64,000 nt of DNA from a bacterium (GTDB taxonomy: Bacteria > Patescibacteriota > Minisyncoccia > Phycocordibacterales > UBA2100): NCBI GenBank assembly GCA_016789445.1, contig JAEUQT010000003.1, forward strand, positions 82,600 to 146,599, read 5' to 3'. Position 1 is the stretch's first letter, and every line of letters starts with the position of its first letter. The position numbers and the translations under genes are program-made. Below the pieces are notes generated by a model. The model saw nothing but the letters and a program-made list of their open reading frames with translations, ran no database searches and had not been told where the DNA came from. This document shows, one piece after another, positions 1,796 through 50,500 of the stretch.

Positions 1796-2299
1796 AGCCC
1801 CATCCTATACTCCCGCTTTAGGGTTGTCAAGTGCTGGAAATAAATATCGCTTCTGCCTGTGGATAAACCCCCTCTATACAAGCGAAAGAGCCTTGCTACG
1901 ATATTGGTAGACAGCTGCGGAGCGGCTTGGTCGCCTACCTCCGTTGTCATAGCTTGCACCGAAACAGACAACCTGTTTCTTACTCTCGGCACAGGATCCA
2001 AAAGACCATGCGCCGATAAGGCGTAACCACCGAAAGGTGCAAGCGCCTGCGCCGGGAGTAAGGGATAGGTTTTTTGAATATCGGAAAAGCGAATACCCCC
2101 GAAGTGGGGGCATTAGCGTAGTTGGTCTGGATTGCCTCTCCTAAAAACGGATAGGGCGGGACGACATGAATCCCGGTACAGAACCTATTATTGCGACTTT
2201 AGGCCTAAAGTCTTCGAAAACAAGTACTTGTACGGCTGACACGTTTTATAGTGCCTCCCCCTCGCGGGCTTCCGCGATCACCTTCAAAAGGTGATACAT

Positions 2300-2384
2300 G
2301 CGTCCGTGGCGAAACTAGGTAAACGCAGTGGATTTGTAATCCACCATCCCCTCGGATTTGCGGGTTCAAGTCCCGTCGGACGCA
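2300..2384 (+). tRNA. class II tRNA (long variable arm, 3-bp D-stem, A73 discriminator); anticodon loop ttTGTaa reads UGU
   Basis: Manual cloverleaf: acceptor gcgtccg/cggacgc, D-stem gcg/cgc with GG in the loop, anticodon stem gtgga/tccac, variable arm atcc-cctc-ggat, T-stem gcggg/cccgt with T-loop ttcaagt. No encoded CCA. Confidence 0.7.
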
Positions 2385-2584
2385 AATATCAACTCTCAAA
2401 GACCATAAACAACAGCCAGTTATCTGACTGTCGCGCACGACTGCTAGTAATTGAACGATCCCGCGGTTCCCCCTTTCAAATCGTTTCCGATTACCACCAT
2501 TGTAGACGAAGGTGGTACATGCGGTAAATAGAGTTATCCACGCGGATTCGGACTATACAACAATCTTCATGCGATTGGAATTAA

Positions 2585-2607
2585 GGGTAGCTATCTATAT
2601 AGTTCCC
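2585..2607. repeat. right terminal inverted repeat of the IS-like unit, with 8-bp direct repeat ctagacga at 2608-2615
   Basis: Read from the sequence; the direct repeat includes the uvrC stop codon. Confidence 0.5.
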
Positions 2608-3867
2608 CTAGACGATGCTGGTCGCTTGTCGTCGCTTACGATGCCACGTAATCGCGAAACGATGCGCCTCAGAATTGGCGAGAAGGATGTCACGTTCAAA
2701 CGATTGTATGGCATTGAGATTGCCGATGAGACGTTCCGGACGATGGCGTTCGTTCTTTACGACACCCACCAGCGGAATGGTGATACCCGCTTTGGAGAGC
2801 ACTTTCTTGGCGGCATTCATCTGTGCCGTCGAGCCATCGACGACGATGACGCGCGGATACTGCCATTCAGGATGAAGTAATCGGCGCGACAAGACTTCAG
2901 TCAGAGCTCCCGGATCGTTGTTGGTGAATCCCTTCACTTTGAATTTGCGATAGGCGCTTTTGAGCGGTTCCCCTTCTTCGACGGCGACCATGACGCCGAC
3001 CGTTTCGGTGCCGGAGGTGTGGGCGACGTCGAATGCTTCGATACGTGCGCCGCGTTGCGGGATGTTGCCGCCGCTGGAGATGCGGGAATCATCCTTGATG
3101 AGCGCGATGTCGTTGATGTGGGTCAGCGCGCCGACCTGACGGCGTGCGCGTTCGGCATCTTCGAATCGTTCTTCTTTGGCAGCCACTTTCATTTCCTTCT
3201 CGAGCTCCTTCACGAGCGTTTTCTTCTTGCCGCTGAAAAGAAGGCAGATGTTGCGGATAGTGATTGCGTATTCCTGCGCATCGGTTTCTCCGGTGCAGAC
3301 GCCAGGGCACAGCCCTATTTGCCTGTTAAAACAGGGACGGCAATTGGCTTTGCCGGACTTGAGTTGTTCCGAGCATGGGGTGCACTTGTCATCGCGATAC
3401 GGGAAGATGCGACGCACGAGCTTCATCGCTTCGCGCAGCGCGAGGCCTTGCGGAAACGGGCCGAAAAGCTGCTTCACCTTCCCTCCCTGCCAGTTGGTGA
3501 AGTATTCACGACCACGCACGACGAGCAGGCGCGGGAATGCTTCTTCGGTCACCACGAGGTAGTTGAAGCTGCGGTTGTTCTTGTCGATGATGTTGTAGGG
3601 CGGCGTGTGCTTCTTGATGAGATTCGCTTCGAGGATCATCGCTTCGAGTACGGAATCCGCTTCTTCCCACGTGATGGTGTCGGCTTCCTGCACCATGGCC
3701 GCGATGGCGGTGGAACGCGATTCCTGAAGGCCGGCATTGAAATAGCTGCGCACGCGGTCGCGCAGCACCGTTGCCTTGCCGATATACAAAATCTTCCCGC
3801 CCTTCTGGAAGCGGTAGATGCCCGGTGTTTCCGGAAGGTCGAATTTTTGGAGGTCATCTTTCTGCAT
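2608..3867 (-). CDS. uvrC: excinuclease ABC subunit C (UvrC), short form of 419 aa that lacks the C-terminal (HhH)2 region
   Basis: N-terminal GIY-YIG (PGIYRF...ILYIGKA), UvrBC-interaction region, RNase H-like endonuclease domain. Confidence 0.9.
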   Translation of the reverse strand: MQKDDLQKFDLPETPGIYRFQKGGKILYIGKATVLRDRVRSYFNAGLQESRSTAIAAMVQEADTITWEEADSVLEAMILEANLIKKHTPPYNIIDKNNRSFNYLVVTEEAFPRLLVVRGREYFTNWQGGKVKQLFGPFPQGLALREAMKLVRRIFPYRDDKCTPCSEQLKSGKANCRPCFNRQIGLCPGVCTGETDAQEYAITIRNICLLFSGKKKTLVKELEKEMKVAAKEERFEDAERARRQVGALTHINDIALIKDDSRISSGGNIPQRGARIEAFDVAHTSGTETVGVMVAVEEGEPLKSAYRKFKVKGFTNNDPGALTEVLSRRLLHPEWQYPRVIVVDGSTAQMNAAKKVLSKAGITIPLVGVVKNERHRPERLIGNLNAIQSFERDILLANSEAHRFAITWHRKRRQATSIV

Positions 3868-30126: not shown

Positions 30127-31527
30127 ATGTCAGACGCACTCACGGCGCTCTGTCCGTTGGACGGGCGCTATCAGAAGACTGGCGCGAAGCTCGCGAAATA
30201 CTTCAGTGAGCAGGCGCTCATCTTGTATCGCCTACGGGTGATGCATCGCTGGCTCGTAACGCTCGTCGGACAGAGAGGCGTTCCAACGCCGGAACTTACC
30301 GCCGAACAGCACGAGAAACTGACAGACCTCGGCAACTCGTTCGAGGCCGCGGACTGCGTGATCGTGAAGAAGATCGAGACCGAAGGCTACGGCGCCTACA
30401 AGCGCACGAACCACGACGTGAAAGCATGCGAGTTCTACCTTCGAATCCTCTTGGAAGATGCAGGGCTCGGTATGCTCTGCGAATGGGTGCACTTCAGCTG
30501 TACGTCGGAAGACGTGAACAACGTCGCGTACATGCTTATGCTGCACCGCGGCGTCAGTATCCTTGTGGATAGCACAACGGCTATCAGCGAGGAAATCACG
30601 ATCATGAGTTCGGACCATGCAGGGCTGGCAATGCTCGCCCGGACGCATGGGCAACCGGCGACGCCGACTACTTTCGGCAAGGAGATGAGCGTCTTCGAAC
30701 GACGTATCGACCTCCTTATCACCCGCCTCATGGACGTGCGTATCAGCGTCAAATGGAACGGCGCCAGCGGCAATTACAATGCGGCGAACGCTGCACTTCC
30801 ACATATCGCGTGGCAGACGCTCGCGGAAGGCTTCTGCACGATGATCGTCGAGAAAAATGAGCGCATCGACTTCAATACTCACACGACGCAGATCGAACCG
30901 CATGACAGCTATGCGGAGTTGTTCGATCTCCTGACGCAACTCAACACGGTCCTCATCGGTTTCAACCAGGACATCTGGCGGTATGTAAGCGATGACTGGC
31001 TCGTGCAGAAAGCAGTCGAGGGCGAAGTGGGATCATCGGCGATGCCACACAAGGTGAACCCCATCGACTTCGAGAATGCCGAGGGTAACCTCGGTATCGC
31101 GAACGCGCTCTTGGGACACATGGCGCGCAAGCTTCCGATATCGCGCCTCCAGCGCGATCTCTCGGACTCGACGGTGGAGCGGAACTTCGGTATGGCGTTG
31201 GGCTACTGCCTCCTGGGATACGAAGCTATCCTGCGGGGGTTACGTAAACTATCTCCCAACGAGGCGAAGATTGGTGCGGCGCTTGCGGAACATCCGGAGG
31301 TGCTGACCGAGGCCTACCAGACGATCCTACGGAGCGTGAACTATCCGAATGCGTACGATGCCCTCAAAGGACTCGCCCGCGGAAAGAAGATCACACTCGA
31401 GGATCTGCATGCTTTCGTGCATTCACTGGATGTACCGCAATTCGTGAAGCAGCAAATGCTTGCGCTGACGCCCGAAACATATCTCGGGATCGCACCCGAA
31501 CTGGCGAGACAGAAGTTGTTCACCTAG
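30127..31527 (+). CDS. purB: adenylosuccinate lyase
   Basis: Fumarate-lyase signature GSSAMPHKVNP; start MSDALTAL after ggagga RBS. Confidence 0.9.
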   Translation: MSDALTALCPLDGRYQKTGAKLAKYFSEQALILYRLRVMHRWLVTLVGQRGVPTPELTAEQHEKLTDLGNSFEAADCVIVKKIETEGYGAYKRTNHDVKACEFYLRILLEDAGLGMLCEWVHFSCTSEDVNNVAYMLMLHRGVSILVDSTTAISEEITIMSSDHAGLAMLARTHGQPATPTTFGKEMSVFERRIDLLITRLMDVRISVKWNGASGNYNAANAALPHIAWQTLAEGFCTMIVEKNERIDFNTHTTQIEPHDSYAELFDLLTQLNTVLIGFNQDIWRYVSDDWLVQKAVEGEVGSSAMPHKVNPIDFENAEGNLGIANALLGHMARKLPISRLQRDLSDSTVERNFGMALGYCLLGYEAILRGLRKLSPNEAKIGAALAEHPEVLTEAYQTILRSVNYPNAYDALKGLARGKKITLEDLHAFVHSLDVPQFVKQQMLALTPETYLGIAPELARQKLFT

Positions 31528-43926: not shown

Positions 43927-44262
43927 TTATTTTTGCTCCCCTCCATCTTCGCCGAATAAATGATCCCCAAAAATTGGTCTCGTACGTGGATTCTTAAAAA
44001 CGGACGTTGGATCTTTATCCTCTTCTACAGTTAGGAGAAAGAGGCCTCCGGTATCGAGAAGAAAACCATTCATGTGCTCCTCGATTACTCTCTTACCTAC
44101 AGCATCAGATGCCGTCTTTTTGTCGGGAGCTTCGAGAAAATAGTGCCATAGCACCGTTCCTTCAGTCGGGTGAATGATTTCGGCATAGAATTTCATAAGT
44201 TCATGCTGGCACAAATGCTTGGAAAGTATTGTATGCTCAGATTGCGGCAATAAACCTGCCAA
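43927..44262 (-). CDS. hypothetical protein (111 aa) immediately downstream of hsdR
   Basis: ORF-track ORF; low GC like the R-M island. Confidence 0.4.
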   Translation of the reverse strand: MAGLLPQSEHTILSKHLCQHELMKFYAEIIHPTEGTVLWHYFLEAPDKKTASDAVGKRVIEEHMNGFLLDTGGLFLLTVEEDKDPTSVFKNPRTRPIFGDHLFGEDGGEQK

Positions 44263-44291
44263 TTTTTCCGCTCAGTTGCAAATATAGAACC

Positions 44292-47200
44292 TTAACGTCG
44301 AAGTATTGAACCTTCAGAAATGCCAATGAATCTCTCGAAGAAGCTCGTCAATTTATTCAAGACACTATCACGTTTCCGCGAGCGCTCTCCACTTGGGGAG
44401 AAGCGAGAAACTGGTGGCAGCACCTTTGTGAGTGCTGTCCCCGTTATGGCGACTGCGCCGTCGCGAAAGGCATTTTGAACGAAATTATAGGTGGCATCAG
44501 GATCCAGATTTTCATCCTTGATGATTTGGTCCAATTCTTCCACTTTCTTTTCCTCCACATACTTCTGCCAATCCTCGTCCACGACCGAATTCGCATCGAG
44601 CGATGAAATGAATTTGTTGATGAGGTCTTTCTTGTTGCGCAATTCAACGCTCGAATCGATTGCCTTGTTGATGTCAATCAAGAGCTCTTTGTTCTTAGTA
44701 TGGTCTTCGTGGTACTTCTTGATGAGGGCAAGGATGTAATCGATATTGATCTCGATCTGCTTAATGAGCTCCATCTCAAACACCAGATCGTCGTTGATGT
44801 TCTCTTTCTCCTTGTCGATGCTGGTACGGAACTCGTTGTACAGATCAATGTACATGCTGTGGTAGTCCTGCAGATCTCGCGCAGAAAGTATTTCGTTTCC
44901 CGTGAACTGGTCGAAGGTCACCAAGATATTGCGCAACCGCAATACAGCGCCGTACAGCTTTATGAAGTCCTTTTGGCTCTGTTCACCCATAATGCGCTCG
45001 CCCACAGGAAACTTTTCCAGAAGTTCGTCTACCAAGCTCTTGTAGCCCCGCACCTCCTTGTTACGTTCCGTGTAGCCGTTGTAGTAGTCCTCGTATGCTT
45101 TGAGAAGCACGATGCCGCTCGCTTCCTTGTCTCCGAAAAGAGCGATTGCTTCGTTGGTAGCTTTCTCTAAATTGCGGAAGCAGACGATATTGCCGAAGGT
45201 CTTCACGCTGTTAAGGATGCGATTCGTACGGGAATATGCCTGCAGTAGCCCGTGGAGTCGGAGATTCTTGTCCACCCACAGCGTGTTGAGTGTGGTGGCA
45301 TCAAAACCGGTCAGAAACATATTGACCACAATGAGAATATCAATCTCGCGACTCTTTACGCGCTCACTCACGTCTTTATAGTAGTTTTGGAACTTATCTG
45401 ACGAAGTATCGTACGATGTGCCGAACATCGCATTGTAGTCGGCGATAGCACTCTCTAAGAACTCACGCGAACTAGCATCAAGTCCGCTAGTGTCTTCCGA
45501 GTTTTCATCAACCATCCCGTCGGCATCCTCGTCGTTGACGCCAAAACTGAAGATTGTGGCGACCTTCAATTTTTTGTCACTGGGAACGTCCGCGAGCTGT
45601 TTTTTGAACTCGGCATAATACTTCTTTGCGACATCAATGGAAGACACCGCGAATATTGAATTGAAACCGGCAAGGCGTCTGTCTTTCAGCTTGTAAAAGC
45701 TATTGCGCTTTGTCTTTTGGTCGAAGTGTTCGCGTATATAACGCACGATATTCTCGAGTCGTTCAGGCGAAGCGAGAGCTGCCTCACGATCTATACCGCT
45801 CACTTGCTTGTCCTCGATGTCTTCCGCTTCGCGGATTGTGGAGACGTAATCAACCTTGAAGGGCAACACGTTCTTGTCCGCAATCGCGTCCACAATCGTA
45901 TACGTATGGAGCTTGGTGCCGAATGCCTGCTCGGTGGTCTTTAGGTCTGGACGACCACCAGACGAGGCGTTTGCGGCAAATATTGGCGTACCCGTGAAGC
46001 CAAATAGGTGGTAGTTATTAAATGCCTTGGTGATAGCGGCATGCATGTCGCCGAACTGCGAACGATGACACTCATCAAAAATAAGCGCTACATGCCCATC
46101 AAATATGGTGTGTCCGCTGTTGCGCGCTATGAAGCGGTCGAGCTTTTGGATGGTGGTAACGATGATGCGAGCCTTAGAGTCTTCAAGCTGCTTTTTCAAT
46201 ATTGATGTCGAGGTGTTGCTGTTCGCCGCTCCTTTCTCAAACTTGTCATACTCACGCATTGTCTGATAGTCGAGATCCTTGCGGTCTACGATGAAAAGGA
46301 CCTTGTCGATGTACGACAATTTGCTGGCAAGTTGTGCTGCCTTGAAGCTGGTGAGCGTTTTACCCGATCCAGTGGTATGCCAGATGTATCCACCTGCCTC
46401 TACCGTGCCTAGCTTTTTATAGTTGGTACTTACCTCGATGCGGTTCAAAATGCGCTCTGTAGCCACTATTTGATACGGGCGCATAACCAGCAGTTGGTGG
46501 TCGGTCGTGAACACGCAATAGCGTGTGAGGACATTGAGGAGCGTATGCTTGGCAAAAAACGTCTTAGCAAAGTCCATGAGGTCAGCAATCGGCTTGTTGG
46601 TCGCATCTGCCCACCAACTGGTAAACTCAAAGCTGCTGCTCGAACGCTTACCACGCTTTGCTGCGCCTTCGTTTGCTTCCTTGATATGCTGCCAGCGAGT
46701 CGTATTGCTGTAATACTTCGTATGCGTGCCATTCGAGATAACAAAAAGCTGGATGTATTCATAAAGCCCCGAAGCCGCCCAGAAGCTCTCGCGCTGATAG
46801 CGATTAATTTGGTTGAATGCTTCTTGAATAGCCACCCCACGACGTTTGAGTTCAATGTGGACTAACGGCAAGCCGTTCACGAGGATGGTCACGTCATAGC
46901 GATTCGCGCGCGCACCATCCTCGGTCGCGTACTGATTTATGACCTGTAACGTGTTGTCATGCACGTTGTCTTTACGGAGTAGGTAGATGTTCTTTGTGGA
47001 GCCATCATCCCGTGTGAGATTTTTTATGTAGTCCTCTTGAATGGTTGCTGTCTTTTCTTCAATGCTCTGGTTAGGGTTGGCTATTTCACCCTTAAAGAAC
47101 CGTTCCCACTCCTTGTCGGTAAAGATGTAATCGTTGAGCTTCTCAAGCTGGGTGCGGAGGTTTGCAATGAGGTCGTCTTCGCTTGTGATGGGGAGGCAAC

Positions 47201-47354
47201 CATAGGCCTGGGATTCGAGCTGCTCGATAAACGCACGTTCAAGCTCCGCTTCGCTCTGATAGTGTTCCGCGCGGTTCTTGTCCGGCGTGTATTCAGCTAC
47301 GACGGTGCTCTGCGCGTTCTCGGCAACTAAATTGTATTTGTTATTAACTGACAT
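44292..47354 (-). CDS. hsdR: type I restriction enzyme R subunit (HsdR)
   Basis: N-terminal nuclease region, SF2 helicase motifs (TGSGKT, DECH), C-terminal domain; 1020 aa. Confidence 0.95.
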   Translation of the reverse strand: MSVNNKYNLVAENAQSTVVAEYTPDKNRAEHYQSEAELERAFIEQLESQAYGCLPITSEDDLIANLRTQLEKLNDYIFTDKEWERFFKGEIANPNQSIEEKTATIQEDYIKNLTRDDGSTKNIYLLRKDNVHDNTLQVINQYATEDGARANRYDVTILVNGLPLVHIELKRRGVAIQEAFNQINRYQRESFWAASGLYEYIQLFVISNGTHTKYYSNTTRWQHIKEANEGAAKRGKRSSSSFEFTSWWADATNKPIADLMDFAKTFFAKHTLLNVLTRYCVFTTDHQLLVMRPYQIVATERILNRIEVSTNYKKLGTVEAGGYIWHTTGSGKTLTSFKAAQLASKLSYIDKVLFIVDRKDLDYQTMREYDKFEKGAANSNTSTSILKKQLEDSKARIIVTTIQKLDRFIARNSGHTIFDGHVALIFDECHRSQFGDMHAAITKAFNNYHLFGFTGTPIFAANASSGGRPDLKTTEQAFGTKLHTYTIVDAIADKNVLPFKVDYVSTIREAEDIEDKQVSGIDREAALASPERLENIVRYIREHFDQKTKRNSFYKLKDRRLAGFNSIFAVSSIDVAKKYYAEFKKQLADVPSDKKLKVATIFSFGVNDEDADGMVDENSEDTSGLDASSREFLESAIADYNAMFGTSYDTSSDKFQNYYKDVSERVKSREIDILIVVNMFLTGFDATTLNTLWVDKNLRLHGLLQAYSRTNRILNSVKTFGNIVCFRNLEKATNEAIALFGDKEASGIVLLKAYEDYYNGYTERNKEVRGYKSLVDELLEKFPVGERIMGEQSQKDFIKLYGAVLRLRNILVTFDQFTGNEILSARDLQDYHSMYIDLYNEFRTSIDKEKENINDDLVFEMELIKQIEINIDYILALIKKYHEDHTKNKELLIDINKAIDSSVELRNKKDLINKFISSLDANSVVDEDWQKYVEEKKVEELDQIIKDENLDPDATYNFVQNAFRDGAVAITGTALTKVLPPVSRFSPSGERSRKRDSVLNKLTSFFERFIGISEGSILRR

Positions 47355-48552
47355 ATTCGGGGAAGGTTAAGAGCTTGCCTCGATAGTATTCGTACTGTTT
47401 GCGCCGTGCCGAGATTTCCGCCGGGAGACCTTCGGATTTGTCATTCACAAGCGCATCAAACTTGTCCAGAATTGACACAATATGTTCTTGCTCTTCCTCT
47501 GACGGAACTGGTACGGGTATCTTGTTGAGGTTTGTTTTGTTGAGCTTTGGTTGTGCTCCTCCGCTGACATAAGATCGTAAATCGATAGAATTCAAATAGA
47601 TCTCAATCAGACGTCGCATTGCATAACTCTCAAACTTAAGAACATGAGCGTGGTTATTGACCCAGGTCTTTCCTGAAATCGAAAAAGCGATTGGCGTCGT
47701 TCTTGCAAGAAGATTGGCTCCATCTTCTGAAACAAGTAAGTAGTCACCCTCAAATATGTAGTCGCTAACATAGTCAACAATGCCGGACGCCCCATAGTAA
47801 GGAACGTTTCCAGCCGTCCGTGCTGATCGCGTGACTGGTTTACGCTTTGAGTCTAAGTTGATGGAAATTCTATCGAGCGTCGTCCATCTTACTCTCTCAC
47901 TCTCGTTAAACGTCAAGAGCTCAGAACGATAATGCTCGTATTGCTTCCCTCTCGCTTCTAACTCTGCTTCTAACTCTGCTTCTAACTCTGTAAAAGCATC
48001 GAGGATGCTTGCAATCTCCTGCTGGATTTCAAGTGGCGGAACGGGAATTTTGATTGATGCCAATGTTGCCATTCGTACTCCTTTAAGCGTACTGCCGACC
48101 GATTGACTTTGATACTGGTCCTTTGCGATGTCTGAACCAAGGATATACATCAAATACCTTGGCAATATTGTTTCTTGCTTGGGTTTTATGATGAAGACAC
48201 TTTCACTGCAATTCCAGTTGTTTGTCGGAATATCTGCCAATGCAACTTTTCCAATAGTTCCAATACCAGAAAACAGCACGTCGTTCAATTCCAAGTCAGA
48301 GCGGTTCTGAATTATTCTTACAGCTTCATCATTAATCTTATCTGTCTTGTCACTGAACTGAACCTTACCAGAAGTAATCTCCTTGACCGTTACATAAAAA
48401 TTGGTTGCGTCGGGCGTATTCAATCTGAAATTCTGGCGCGGATTCAATCCTGTCTTAATTGATTTTGTGATAACTCCCAACTCCCTAAACTCCACACCTT
48501 TCGAGCATTTTTCAGCAATCAACTTTTCAATTTGACTCTGGTGTTTGGTCAT
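47344..48552 (-). CDS. hsdS: type I restriction-modification specificity subunit (HsdS)
   Basis: Two target-recognition domains separated by a central conserved helical region; overlaps hsdR by 11 nt. Confidence 0.9.
   Translation of the reverse strand: MTKHQSQIEKLIAEKCSKGVEFRELGVITKSIKTGLNPRQNFRLNTPDATNFYVTVKEITSGKVQFSDKTDKINDEAVRIIQNRSDLELNDVLFSGIGTIGKVALADIPTNNWNCSESVFIIKPKQETILPRYLMYILGSDIAKDQYQSQSVGSTLKGVRMATLASIKIPVPPLEIQQEIASILDAFTELEAELEAELEARGKQYEHYRSELLTFNESERVRWTTLDRISINLDSKRKPVTRSARTAGNVPYYGASGIVDYVSDYIFEGDYLLVSEDGANLLARTTPIAFSISGKTWVNNHAHVLKFESYAMRRLIEIYLNSIDLRSYVSGGAQPKLNKTNLNKIPVPVPSEEEQEHIVSILDKFDALVNDKSEGLPAEISARRKQYEYYRGKLLTFPEYVS
47953..47988. repeat. 3 x 12-bp tandem repeat (tgcttctaactc) encoding ELEAELEAELEA in the HsdS central spacer
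   Basis: Copies 2 and 3 identical, copy 1 differs at its first base (3 x 12 nt); in frame. Confidence 0.7.
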
Positions 48553-48554
48553 GG

Positions 48555-50156
48555 TTATTTTTTACCTTCAATATCAGCAACGATAGCGTCGATAGCGTTA
48601 CGGAGTTCGTTTTGGCGAGCGACAATGTTCGCAATACTCTCGTTCAGCTCCTTGATATCAACTACCTCACGAGTGTCTTTTCCGTCCACATAGCTTGAGA
48701 CCGAGATATTGTAGTCGTTCTCCGCAATATCATTGTTGTTCACCAGCGCGGCAAAGTGCTCAACGTCTTCTCGGTCAATAAAGGCATCGAGGATCTTTTT
48801 GCGATTTGTTTCGCTGAGTTTGTTCTTATTGCCACTGCGAACGAACTCGGTCGATGCGTCAATGAAAAACGTCTTATTGTCTTTCTTACTCTTTTTCAGA
48901 ACAATTACGCAGGTCGCAATAGTTGTGCCGAAGAAGAGATCCGGCGGCAGCTGGATTACAGAGTCGATGTAGTTGTTGTCTATGAGATACTTGCGGATCT
49001 TCTGCTCTGCACCACCGCGATAGAGCACGCCAGGGAACTCGACGATGGCTGCCGTGCCGTTCGTCGCAAGCCACGAGAGCATGTGCATTGTGAATGCGAG
49101 ATCCGCTTTGCTCTTAGGCGCGAGTACACCTGCCGGAGAGAAACGGGGGTCGTTGATGAGAATGGGATTAGCGTCACCCTCCCATCGGATTGAGTAGGGA
49201 GGGTTCGATACGATGGCCTCAAATGGCTCATCGTCCCAGTGCTTAGGGTCTGTGAGAGTATCACCATGCGCGATATTGAACTTCTCGTAGTTGATATCGT
49301 GCAAGAACATGTTGATGCGGCATAGATTGAACGTGGTGAGATTGATTTCCTGTCCGAAAAACCCCTGACGTACTTTGTCTTTACTCAGTACCTTGGCGAA
49401 TTTGAGCAACAGCGAACCGGAGCCGCACGCAGGGTCATACACTTTATTGACTTCCTTTTTGCCTACCGTAGTTATCTCTGCCAGTAGCTCGCTTACTTCC
49501 TGTGGCGTAAAGAACTCGCCGCCGGACTTACCGGCGTTGGAGGCGTACATGGTCATGAGGAACTCGTATGCATCGCCGAAAGCATCTATTGAGTTGTCGG
49601 CATAGTCGCCAAAGCGCAAACCCCCTATTGCCTCAAGGAGCTTTGCGAGCTTCTGATTGCGTCTTTCTACGGTGTTGCCCAGCTTGCCGGAGTTAACGTC
49701 GAGGTCGTCGAAAAGTCCCTTGAGGTCATCCTCGCTATCTGCGCCCTTCGCGGAGCTCTCTATGTTGTTGAAGACGCGCTCAAGTGTTTCGTTGAGGTTC
49801 GCGTCATTCCGAGCGTTTTTTGTGACGTTTACGAACAGCTCGCTTGGCAGTATGTAAAAACCTTTCTCTTTTACCGTATCGGCGCGACCAAATTCAGCTT
49901 GTTTATCTGAAAGTGATGCGTAATCAAAATCCTTTTTTCCAGCACGCTGCTCCTCTTCATTGATGTAGCTCTCGAGGTTCTCGCTAATGAAGCGATAGAA
50001 GAGCATTCCAAGCACGTACTGCTTAAAATCCCACCCGTCCACACTGCCACGAAGATCGTTGGCAATCTGCCAAATGGCACGATGCAATTCTGACCGCTCT
50101 TGGTCTTTCGTGACTGCTGAACCTTGTTTGTTCACCATATAGTCGATCTTGATCAT
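48555..50156 (-). CDS. hsdM: type I restriction-modification methyltransferase subunit (HsdM)
   Basis: N-terminal HsdM helical domain (LHRAIWQIANDLRG), N6-adenine MTase motifs including NPPY (VSNPPYS). Start is probably MIKIDY (50156) or MVNKQ (50138); the track extension to 50255 is unlikely. Confidence 0.9.
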   Translation of the reverse strand: MIKIDYMVNKQGSAVTKDQERSELHRAIWQIANDLRGSVDGWDFKQYVLGMLFYRFISENLESYINEEEQRAGKKDFDYASLSDKQAEFGRADTVKEKGFYILPSELFVNVTKNARNDANLNETLERVFNNIESSAKGADSEDDLKGLFDDLDVNSGKLGNTVERRNQKLAKLLEAIGGLRFGDYADNSIDAFGDAYEFLMTMYASNAGKSGGEFFTPQEVSELLAEITTVGKKEVNKVYDPACGSGSLLLKFAKVLSKDKVRQGFFGQEINLTTFNLCRINMFLHDINYEKFNIAHGDTLTDPKHWDDEPFEAIVSNPPYSIRWEGDANPILINDPRFSPAGVLAPKSKADLAFTMHMLSWLATNGTAAIVEFPGVLYRGGAEQKIRKYLIDNNYIDSVIQLPPDLFFGTTIATCVIVLKKSKKDNKTFFIDASTEFVRSGNKNKLSETNRKKILDAFIDREDVEHFAALVNNNDIAENDYNISVSSYVDGKDTREVVDIKELNESIANIVARQNELRNAIDAIVADIEGKK

Positions 50157-50500
50157 TCTAACGCACAAGACTGATTCCCCACCCCAGAATGCTGAGAAAA
50201 AGAACCCAGCTGAGAAATTGCACAAAATGCCCATATGCCCCATGTACAACAGCACTCGCCAAGCGCCACAACGGATATAGCAAAAAGAAAGCTGCCCTCA
50301 GAACTGCATTGAGCAAATATTCCCACCATCGCTGTCTGTACATTGGGGAATCCTACGCCCAAAATGAAGAAACGCCACTGCTTGTGGGCTTGTGCACACC
50401 CCTTGAATTCACTTGATTTTAACGAGGCGCTCGGTTATAATACATGCAAGATCACCACGGAAAACGCCCTTCAAGGCTCGTCCTTGCGGGGTTTTTTCTT

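Follow-up and report, generated by a model that had tools for sequence, protein, structure and literature searches.

We analyzed a 64,000-nt stretch of a patescibacterial contig (JAEUQT010000003.1, positions 82,600 to 146,599; hereafter the window) in which an IS1595-family insertion sequence (IS) carries, besides its transposase gene, a tRNA gene that joins a leucine-type class II body to a UGU anticodon, the reader of ACA threonine codons. The central new fact is that within one 2-kb element an invariant UGU anticodon occurs together with its fixed cognate codon in the transposase gene. ARAGORN returned a single tRNA in the whole window, at 2299-2385 (+), and called it Thr with anticodon tgt, and Rfam model RF00005 matched 2300-2384 (+) with 57.9 bits (gathering score, 29; E = 6.8e-10), covering model positions 1-71 in full. 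Both results bear out an earlier sequence-only reading, which had placed UGU at positions 34-36 of a class II tRNA.

Read by hand, the cloverleaf comprises a 7-bp acceptor (GCGTCCG/CGGACGC) followed by U8 and G9; a 3-bp D stem (GCG/CGC) with the loop AAACTAGGTAAA, in which G18G19 are present; A26; an anticodon stem (GTGGA/TCCAC) with the 7-nt loop TT-TGT-AA (U33-UGU-A37); a variable arm; a T stem (GCGGG/CCCGT, with G49-U65) with the loop TTCAAGT; and A73. The CCA end is not encoded. The variable arm is 15 nt long (C-ATCC-CCTC-GGAT-TT) with a 4-bp stem (ATCC/GGAT), which makes the tRNA class II by the usual measure of an arm longer than 10 nt with its own stem-loop. The sequence-only reading had drawn the same fold and was right in all of its details, including A73, which it named a Leu/Tyr-type discriminator. 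It had also pointed to a shifted anticodon register, giving GUA or UGA, as the way in which its assignment might fall. No tool shifted the register, and UGU is the sole triplet invariant in all 13 distinct members of the family described below; GUA at positions 35-37 is excluded because one relative (L118) carries GUG there.

The mobile unit spans 565-2607 (2,043 bp), as judged from the perfect 8-bp direct repeat on either side of its terminal inverted repeats. The inverted repeats, 24 nt long and 88% complementary, lie at 565-588 (+; GGGAACTATATACCTATCTACCCT) and 2584-2607 (-), and the two identical copies of the target-site duplication (TSD), CTAGACGA, lie at 557-564 and 2608-2615. The 12-mer GGGAACTATATA occurs in the window only at the two IS ends, against 0.04 matches expected by chance, and the same termini are found in 11 related elements. 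Between these ends are the transposase gene (911-1795, -; 294 amino acids [aa]), two small minus-strand open reading frames (ORFs) and the tRNA gene, which is divergent from the transposase gene; the tRNA was thus correctly described at the outset as lying inside the IS unit. The transposase matches PF12762 (DDE_Tnp_IS1595; E = 2.4e-42) and PF12760 (Zn_ribbon_IS1595; E = 6.4e-10), which, with the terminal inverted repeats and the 8-bp TSD, places the element in the IS1595 family.

Linkage of the tRNA gene to one transposase clade

Homologues of the transposase number in the thousands, several hundred of them within its own clade, the closest being found in Candidatus Vogelbacteria and Paceibacterota. 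DNA from relatives was drawn from metagenomes, from contigs encoding specific homologues and from viral contigs. A class II-length tRNA(tgt) is present in every locus that has a transposase 56-98% identical to that of the window and enough flanking DNA (L029/30, L031/129, L032, L109, L110/111, L112, L114-117, L118-121, L122-126, L131, L136 and L137), which gives 13 distinct tRNA-bearing elements, the window's and 12 further ones. Locus L116 belongs to Ca. Vogelbacteria RIFOXYD1_FULL_44_32 (GCA_001823065.1), and SRR14117730, SRR29476933 and JGI 3300025121 are among the samples in which the element is present. The in-clade contigs on which we saw no tRNA (L113, L127, L133 and L128) all stop short of its expected position. 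No such class II tRNA(tgt) was found in about 150 loci with IS1595 transposases of at most 51% identity.

In ten elements, located at ten separate insertion sites, the transposase and the tRNA are together enclosed by GGGAACTATATA ends and a perfect 8-bp TSD that differs from site to site (the window, L029, L031, L109, L110, L112, L114, L118, L122 and L131), and L032 and L136 have the inverted repeats with no matching TSD. The IS units of the family measure 2,043-3,456 bp. The tRNA may be upstream and divergent, upstream and codirectional, downstream and codirectional or downstream and convergent relative to the transposase gene, always between the IS ends. Extra protein cargo is found within the same ends as well, namely a 455-aa SLFN_AlbA_2/HATPase_c_4 protein in L118 (3493-6136) and a DUF5343 protein in L122 (3508-6529) and at the L129 locus. 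Because the position and strand of the tRNA and the other cargo vary, the linkage of transposase and tRNA has outlasted repeated rearrangement. The elements are mosaic, given that the window element and L109 are 93% identical in the transposase region and 77% identical around the tRNA, with unrelated DNA in between. On the evidence of these loci, the tRNA is an obligatory cargo of one IS1595-family clade in the candidate phyla radiation (CPR; Patescibacteria). One copy of the element (L136) sits amid phage-like genes, including a Dam methylase, an M23 peptidase and many small ORFs, and another relative (L137) came from a collection of viral contigs; CPR phages or prophages may serve the IS as vehicles.

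Selection on the tRNA and the identity of its body

All 13 distinct family tRNAs parse as clean cloverleaves. We measured covariation in an alignment of ten of them, taken from elements whose transposases are only 56-85% identical, with helix partners slid by 1-3 columns as controls. Standard pairs fill 97.5% of the stem cells, compared to 32-44% in the slid controls, and both-sided, compensatory changes have occurred in 20 of the 24 pairs. All five helices are involved, including the variable-arm stem, the four pairs of which all covary. All seven acceptor pairs vary, whereas UGU at 34-36 and A73 are invariant in 13/13 tRNAs; the anticodon loop always has 7 nt, U33 is kept in 12/13, and position 37 is always a purine (A37 in 12/13). 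Two tRNAs (L109:4010-4093 and L112:3233-3317) have replaced G18 with A together with U55 with G (D loop AGC, T loop TGCAAGT), a swap that looks like covariation in the tertiary contact of the D loop with the T loop.

Because pairs covary while UGU, A73 and the 7-nt loop hold, a pseudogene is ruled out, and we argue for a tRNA that works on the ribosome. The sequence-only reading had allowed for a mutated or pseudo tRNA, and a tRNA-Leu or tRNA-Ser gene that the IS had acquired and that is decaying or was mutated by accident would indeed explain an anticodon mismatched to the tRNA class, a CCA that is not encoded and the lack of an obvious promoter or terminator. The Rfam score, the conserved IS linkage, the compensatory pairing and the invariant UGU effectively refute that idea, and an origin from tRNA-Ser is further contradicted by the absence of G73 and of a Ser-type D arm.

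We also considered that the gene could have a role outside translation, as a signal for RNase P/Z processing, as the boundary of a transcript, as a primer or as a module that binds protein, with an incidental anticodon. In L032, L110 and L118 the tRNA lies 130-190 nt from the transposase ORF on the same strand, so that co-transcription is possible, but the orientation varies among elements, which argues against a fixed role in cis. Allo-tRNAs near transposon and toxin-antitoxin genes have been suspected of such roles (PMC5389517). A processing signal, however, needs neither UGU, U33, a purine at 37 and a 7-nt loop, all kept here while the anticodon stem covaries, nor D- and T-loop tertiary partners that are kept or covary (A18 with G55), nor a cognate ACA codon fixed in the transposase gene. 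We regard a purely nontranslational role as improbable.

The bacterial leucine identity set consists of A73, the A15-U48 Levitt pair, G18G19, A20a, U8:A14 and the tertiary pairs that join the D loop to the T loop, and recognition by leucyl-tRNA synthetase (LeuRS) owes nothing to the anticodon and little to the sequence of the variable arm (PMC9976931). The window tRNA has the complete set (A73, A15-U48, G18G19, A20a, U8:A14, G18:U55, G19:C56 and U54:A58). A73, A15-U48 and U8:A14 are kept in 13/13 family members and G18G19 in 11/13, the exceptions being the two tRNAs with A18 and G55 (L109 and L112); A20a and U54:A58 occur in every member checked. One contig with a related IS (L128) carries genuine tRNA-Leu(UAG) and tRNA-Leu(UAA) genes beside it, and their D arms are identical or nearly so to those of the IS tRNAs; the D arm UG-GCG-GAAUUGGUAUA-CGC-G is common to this tRNA-Leu(UAA) and the IS tRNA of L032. 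Reference tRNAs were taken from a metagenomic contig with a distant IS1595 transposase (L081:686-6421), and in D-arm alignments the Leu references scored highest, above Ser and Tyr. The array on this contig holds 18 tRNA genes, including four for tRNA-Leu, three for tRNA-Ser, one for tRNA-Tyr and two for class I tRNA-Thr(UGU).

The suggestion that the tRNA is one base away from an ordinary tRNA-Ser(UGA) does not survive these comparisons, since A73 takes the place of G73 and the D arm and T loop are of the tRNA-Leu type. The C2-G71 pair of the window tRNA has in addition been reported to be an anti-determinant for seryl-tRNA synthetase. We do not file the tRNA as an ordinary tRNA-Leu because its anticodon is UGU, where an isoacceptor for CUN or UUR codons has NAG or NAA. 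By its architecture it is a tRNA-Leu derivative whose loop has changed from a form such as UU-UAG-GA to UU-UGU-AA. The change includes a switch from G37 to A37, as is expected for a reader of ANN codons. BLAST searches with the tRNA gave no match in E. coli genomes and a sole, weak near-full-length match in phage records, annotated tRNA-Leu; both searches are too insensitive to use.

With respect to threonine, the anticodon is of the NGU form, with G35 and U36, in 13/13 members, and the shape is not that of class I, the variable arm having 15 nt in the window and 14-22 nt in relatives in place of a 4- to 5-nt loop. Threonine identity has been reported to depend on the anticodon and the first acceptor pairs and little on position 73. 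By the E. coli rule for threonyl-tRNA synthetase (ThrRS), which we used, these pairs are G1-C72 and C2-G71. The window tRNA has both, as is common in tRNA-Leu too, and they are broken in four lineages (G2-C71 in L031, C1-G72 in L032, G1-U72 in L131 and U2-G71 in L136). Because A73 never changes while G1-C72 and C2-G71 are not conserved, LeuRS is favored as the constraining enzyme.

A second, unrelated group of class II-length tRNA(UGU) genes came to light in L001-L028 (for example, L007:7396-7481, L022:6411-6497, L015:3725-3812 and L004:7376-7462), in Acetobacteraceae, Rhodospirillales, Alcaligenaceae, Succinivibrionaceae, Bacteroidaceae, Eremiobacterota and some archaea. These tRNAs have a Ser/Tyr-type D arm (GGCAGAGCGGTTGAATGC), tRNA-Thr-like acceptors (GCCGAC..., GCUGGG...) and A73 or U73, and they lie at ordinary chromosomal loci or in tRNA arrays with no adjoining transposases. 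We found no literature on class II tRNA(UGU) genes of this type, which from their sequences may be genuine class II tRNA-Thr.

ACA codons in the transposase gene and their decoding

We built a codon alignment of the transposase genes from tRNA-bearing elements, ten elements at first and then 13. Four ACA codons are fixed or nearly so: at residue 87 (1535-1537, -) in 13/13 elements; at residue 158 (1322-1324, -) in 12/13, with TTT in L032; at residue 174 (1274-1276, -) in 11/13, with ACG in L031 and GTT in L032; and at residue 278 (962-964, -) in 10/13, with GTG in the other three. A fifth ACA, at 1256-1258, is less conserved. Among the ten elements, the threonine codons at these columns are ACA in 10/10, 9/9, 8/9 and 8/8 cases, or 35/36, compared to 7/102 at 11 other conserved Thr columns, where ACC, ACG and ACT are used and vary synonymously (Fisher p = 1e-24). 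The 13-element set holds 46 ACA codons and one ACG at the four columns, so that, besides this synonymous ACG, the only in-clade alternatives are TTT, GTT and GTG. Third positions of the codons that flank the fixed ACA codons vary freely (CTC/CTA/CTT/TTG, GGC/GGA/GGT/GGG and GAG/GAA), and because these neighboring positions drift, the constraint is on the ACA codon itself and not on a longer nucleotide motif. Six further ACA codons shared by L032 and L137 at other columns are uninformative, the two transposases being closely related (89% aa identity, 66% identical fourfold sites). ACA makes up 31% of threonine codons in the transposases and 13% in host ORFs (odds ratio, 2.9) and is the most enriched NNA codon; this is weak evidence, as GTA, CTA, TCA and GCA are likewise enriched, the AT content of the IS exceeds that of its hosts and the transposases do not count as independent samples.

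In the host, ACA is read as threonine. The HsdR-like gene of the window has 15 ACA codons, at which the mean threonine fraction among homologues is 0.44, compared to 0.45 for the other Thr codons; five of them stand in columns where Thr makes up 50% or more, and no hydrophobic column holds any of them. Host core genes make little use of ACA, with 3 among 53 Thr codons in uvrA, and one of these three stands at an invariant threonine (residue 457, Thr in 120/120 homologues). In purB (ORF taken as 30127-31527), two of four ACA codons are at Thr columns and one, residue 150 (30574-30576), is at a column that is Leu in 106/119 and Ile, Val, Met or Phe in 13/119 adenylosuccinate lyase homologues. 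This residue is what one would cite for a host-wide reassignment or ambiguous decoding of ACA, with the tRNA merely sitting in the IS. It is, however, the only one of the 22 host ACA codons tested that falls in a hydrophobic column, a frequency close to the base rate for Thr codons of other kinds, and 8 of the 22 are in columns with at least 50% Thr, invariant ones included. Moreover, the IS occurs at unrelated sites in hosts of 30% to 64% G+C, and the main text of a screen of more than 250,000 genomes makes no mention of ACA (PMC8629427). The host reads ACA as Thr and must own a decoder for it, and therefore a genome-wide reassignment is very unlikely.

Which amino acid is inserted at the fixed codons of the element is a separate matter. 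In 28 distant IS1595 transposases from elements that lack the tRNA, column 158 holds Val, Lys, Leu, Arg or Ile and column 278 holds Val, Ile, Leu or Phe, neither of them ever Thr, and column 174 holds Met, Ala, Ser, Leu or Val with a single Thr. A log-odds test in the style of Codetta, with column profiles from distant homologues, recovered the standard meaning of 20/20 control codons, including ACC, ACG and ACT as Thr, and did not do so for ACA, which scored 2.8 for Val and -0.2 for Thr per column (34 and -35 per occurrence). These comparisons show that ACA is handled differently from the other threonine codons in these transposase genes; they do not name leucine as the residue delivered. An earlier contrast, in which only ACA-coded Thr appeared in hydrophobic columns (10 ACA codons compared to 0/132 others), had come mostly from one column, residue 278, and was withdrawn for sporadic sites after 117 members of the clade had been aligned.

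We hypothesize that the IS-borne tRNA, charged by LeuRS or with a mixture of Leu and Thr, decodes the element's own ACA codons, and we put the probability of this at roughly 50%. The tRNA would be transcribed from the IS and processed and CCA-tailed by host enzymes, and host LeuRS, blind to the anticodon, would aminoacylate it; charging by ThrRS, a reader of G35-U36, may occur too. At ACA codons the IS tRNA would then compete with host tRNA-Thr(UGU), and the element would thereby control the residue, Leu or a Leu/Thr mixture, at the four fixed sites of its transposase, the function of which would become tied to the element's own tRNA. The stronger form of the hypothesis, a private code in which transposase activity depends on this tRNA because ACA means Leu or Leu/Thr at the fixed sites, we rate at slightly less than an even chance. 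Expression, charging by LeuRS, insertion of Leu and any regulatory benefit are what we infer from the integrity, linkage and architecture of the tRNA and from the fixation of ACA, and what the element might gain is speculation. The biochemical prior favors at least partial leucylation, given that LeuRS ignores the anticodon and that all of its determinants are retained under selection, and concurrent threonylation is plausible in view of the anticodon. A reader of Thr codons charged by a synthetase that recognizes class II tRNAs, as proposed in the sequence-only reading, has in this way become the leading hypothesis, with LeuRS as the enzyme, and the comparisons of Leu with Thr at ACA are equivocal.

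Several observations weigh against leucine at these codons. Column 87 is mostly Thr in the 28 distant transposases and is thus a true threonine column of the wider family, and we read residues 158 (an exposed beta position) and 174 (a helix N-cap) as compatible with Thr. In the Codetta-style test of ACA, Val came out on top and Thr second, and Leu was not the top residue. BLOSUM scores favored Leu over Thr in 8/22 ACA columns compared to 6/41 columns of other Thr codons, a difference with p = 0.06. In the 117-member alignment, sporadic Thr encoded by ACC, ACG or ACT also occurs in columns with a majority of Val/Ile or of Leu, and because other Thr codons occur in hydrophobic columns too, the argument for Leu from such columns fails. 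Leu at host ACA codons in invariant Thr columns, such as UvrA 457, would be costly. G35 and U36 are strong ThrRS determinants and make charging with Thr plausible, and a scan of the window element for a promoter or terminator of the tRNA yielded nothing convincing.

Several of these points fit an alternative in which the identity of the tRNA has switched to threonine, so that ThrRS charges it through G35-U36, in most members together with G1-C72 and C2-G71, and the element gains an extra ACA decoder. Such a decoder could secure or gate translation of the transposase where ACA is rare, in the manner of bldA, or could be a cargo that benefits the host, such as a tRNA-Thr whose swapped body lets it evade a tRNA-targeting nuclease. 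We consider this alternative possible but doubtful, and we leave a small share of the probability to explanations that are not named here. The anticodon is a major ThrRS determinant and the window tRNA has both acceptor pairs, but these pairs are not conserved in the family, whereas all 13 members retain the LeuRS determinants, most notably A73, although threonine identity needs none of them; the variable-arm stem, upheld by compensatory change, is likewise needless for a tRNA-Thr. The L001-L028 tRNAs, with Thr-like acceptors at chromosomal loci of other bacteria, suggest that ThrRS accepts class II shapes, but LeuRS ignores anticodons, and charging with Thr alone would require unknown anti-determinants. 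The enrichment of ACA in the transposases and its rarity in host core genes suit a supply of decoder, as do the genuine Thr column at residue 87, the acceptability of Thr at 158 and 174 and the Thr residues in Val/Ile columns encoded by other codons. Dependence on the IS tRNA would nevertheless be only quantitative in a host that reads ACA as Thr, which accounts poorly for fixation in 46/47 cases while other Thr sites drift. Because the host decodes ACA anyway, pure charging with Thr leaves the strict fixation, the Leu determinants and the variable arm each in need of a separate explanation. Under insertion of Leu, the fixation of ACA is explained directly, because a third-base change at these sites would in effect be nonsynonymous.

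Natural tRNAs of hybrid identity and decoders borne by mobile elements are both kinds of system that are already known. The nev-tRNAs of nematodes (Hamashima et al. 2012; PMC3333845) resemble the IS tRNA in that class II, Leu-type bodies with foreign anticodons, Gly and Ile in their case, exploit the anticodon-blindness of LeuRS; they differ in being eukaryotic chromosomal genes with other anticodons, outside any transposable element, and in that no link to fixed codons of a particular gene has been reported for them. Allo-tRNAs (Mukai et al. 2017; PMC5389517) are bacterial class II tRNAs with noncognate sense or stop anticodons from uncultured bacteria, sometimes near transposon-related or toxin-antitoxin genes, but they have 8/4 or 9/3 acceptor and T stems and mostly Ser identity, with no IS-bounded cargo or codon coupling shown. 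The window tRNA departs from this geometry, with a 7-bp acceptor and a 5-bp T stem that are both supported by covariation.

Suppressor tRNAs encoded by stop-codon-recoded phages, reportedly described by Ivanova et al. in 2014 and Borges et al. in 2022, offer another parallel. There, too, a mobile element brings a tRNA that decodes its own genes, and tRNA and recoded codons co-occur; those tRNAs, however, read stop codons, belong to large phage genomes and are believed to set the timing of lytic genes, whereas here a sense codon is read in the transposase gene of an IS of about 2 kb, and the transposase ORF has no in-frame stops under the standard code. In Streptomyces, the supply of bldA tRNA-Leu(UUA) gates translation of genes that contain TTA. 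It too pairs a dedicated tRNA with a rare codon kept in particular genes, but it is a chromosomal, matched Leu tRNA with no conflict between identity and anticodon and no mobile element. Deliberate mistranslation in Streptomyces by tRNAProX and ProRSx, at Thr codons among others, is said to have been described by Vargas-Rodriguez et al. in 2021. That system is likewise one of a natural bacterial tRNA with body and anticodon at odds and of programmed missense decoding; it differs in that the tRNA is Pro-type and of class I and has a synthetase paralogue dedicated to it, and no dedicated synthetase gene was found in the IS of the window. Passenger-gene subgroups of the IS1595 family are listed in ISfinder (ISNwi1, ISSod11 and ISNha5), and their described passengers are protein-coding. 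The element studied here shares with them the DDE_Tnp_IS1595 and Zn-ribbon transposase, the terminal inverted repeats, the 8-bp TSD and the cargo between the ends, and differs in that its passenger is a tRNA.

In full-text literature searches we came upon no tRNA passenger, whether in IS1595, another IS family or a transposon, and likewise no class II bacterial tRNA-Thr and no reassignment of ACA; a paper on tRNA introns in Patescibacteria, which deals with miscalled intron-bearing Thr(UGU) genes, was set aside as not relevant to the window tRNA. The coupling of a codon and a tRNA inside a minimal transposon appears to be undescribed. Few natural tRNAs have a body and an anticodon that disagree, and such tRNAs supply the raw material from which genetic codes change; here one is the conserved cargo of a minimal element whose transposase gene shows codon-level selection for the codon that it reads. 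If Leu is delivered, the system would be one in which a sense codon is naturally recoded within a mobile element only. It would offer an IS a new means of regulating or locking its transposase, would be a vehicle that spreads ambiguous ACA decoding among Patescibacteria and would stand as a natural counterpart of engineered swapped-code firewalls. Should the private code be real, a 2-kb transposon would carry such a sense-codon firewall, or a dosage gate, across CPR bacteria. If Thr is delivered, ThrRS accepts a class II tRNA and an IS can carry the decoder for its own rare codons. The choice between Leu and Thr is directly testable.

Other genes of the element and its surroundings

The transposase gene is preceded by a promoter-like sequence, TTGACA-17-TAGGAT (1802-1830, -), just 5' of its start, which is a consensus match only (10/12). 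The first of the two small ORFs (599-778, -; 59 aa) has a hydrophobic N terminus, and a small membrane-like ORF occurs at the same place in related elements. The second (780-914, -; 44 aa, MSKKETRGRKPK...P.PA.FDEVLGA) is basic and overlaps the end of the transposase gene. It is kept in all related elements as a mini-protein of 41-49 aa (MKKETRGRKPK..P.PA.FDEVLGAI...), called as a gene on contigs of relatives, and its ORF runs across the transposase stop throughout the clade. The KRGRPRK stretch in the L122 mini-protein looks like an AT-hook, and the mini-protein could be an accessory factor that binds DNA in this group of ISs. Just within the left IS end, at 585-595, there is a near-copy of the target, CCCTAGACGAT.

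The insertion falls precisely on the uvrC stop codon (gene at 2608-3867, -); uvrA and murB come next after uvrC. The uvrC ORF stays intact because the duplicated target CTAGACGA opens with the TAG stop in reverse complement, and the first three bases of the right copy (2608-2615) serve as the uvrC stop on the minus strand. The encoded UvrC has only 419 aa, with GIY-YIG, UVR and RNase H-like endonuclease domains and without the C-terminal helix-hairpin-helix region. This shortness was not caused by the IS, given that the native stop codon falls within the target duplication. Homologues with 78-97% identity to UvrA carry the annotation Candidatus Kaiserbacteria, Paceibacterota or Minisyncoccia, and the host is therefore a CPR bacterium (Ca. 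Kaiserbacteria-like).

Farther along the window, at 44000-50500, lies an island of low G+C content (0.47-0.48 compared to about 0.57), in which ACA is far commoner than in core genes. It holds three long adjacent ORFs on the minus strand, at 44292-47354, 47344-48552 and 48555-50255, which we read as a probable type I restriction-modification system. The first of these, the HsdR-like ORF and the one of the three that was searched, has thousands of homologues.

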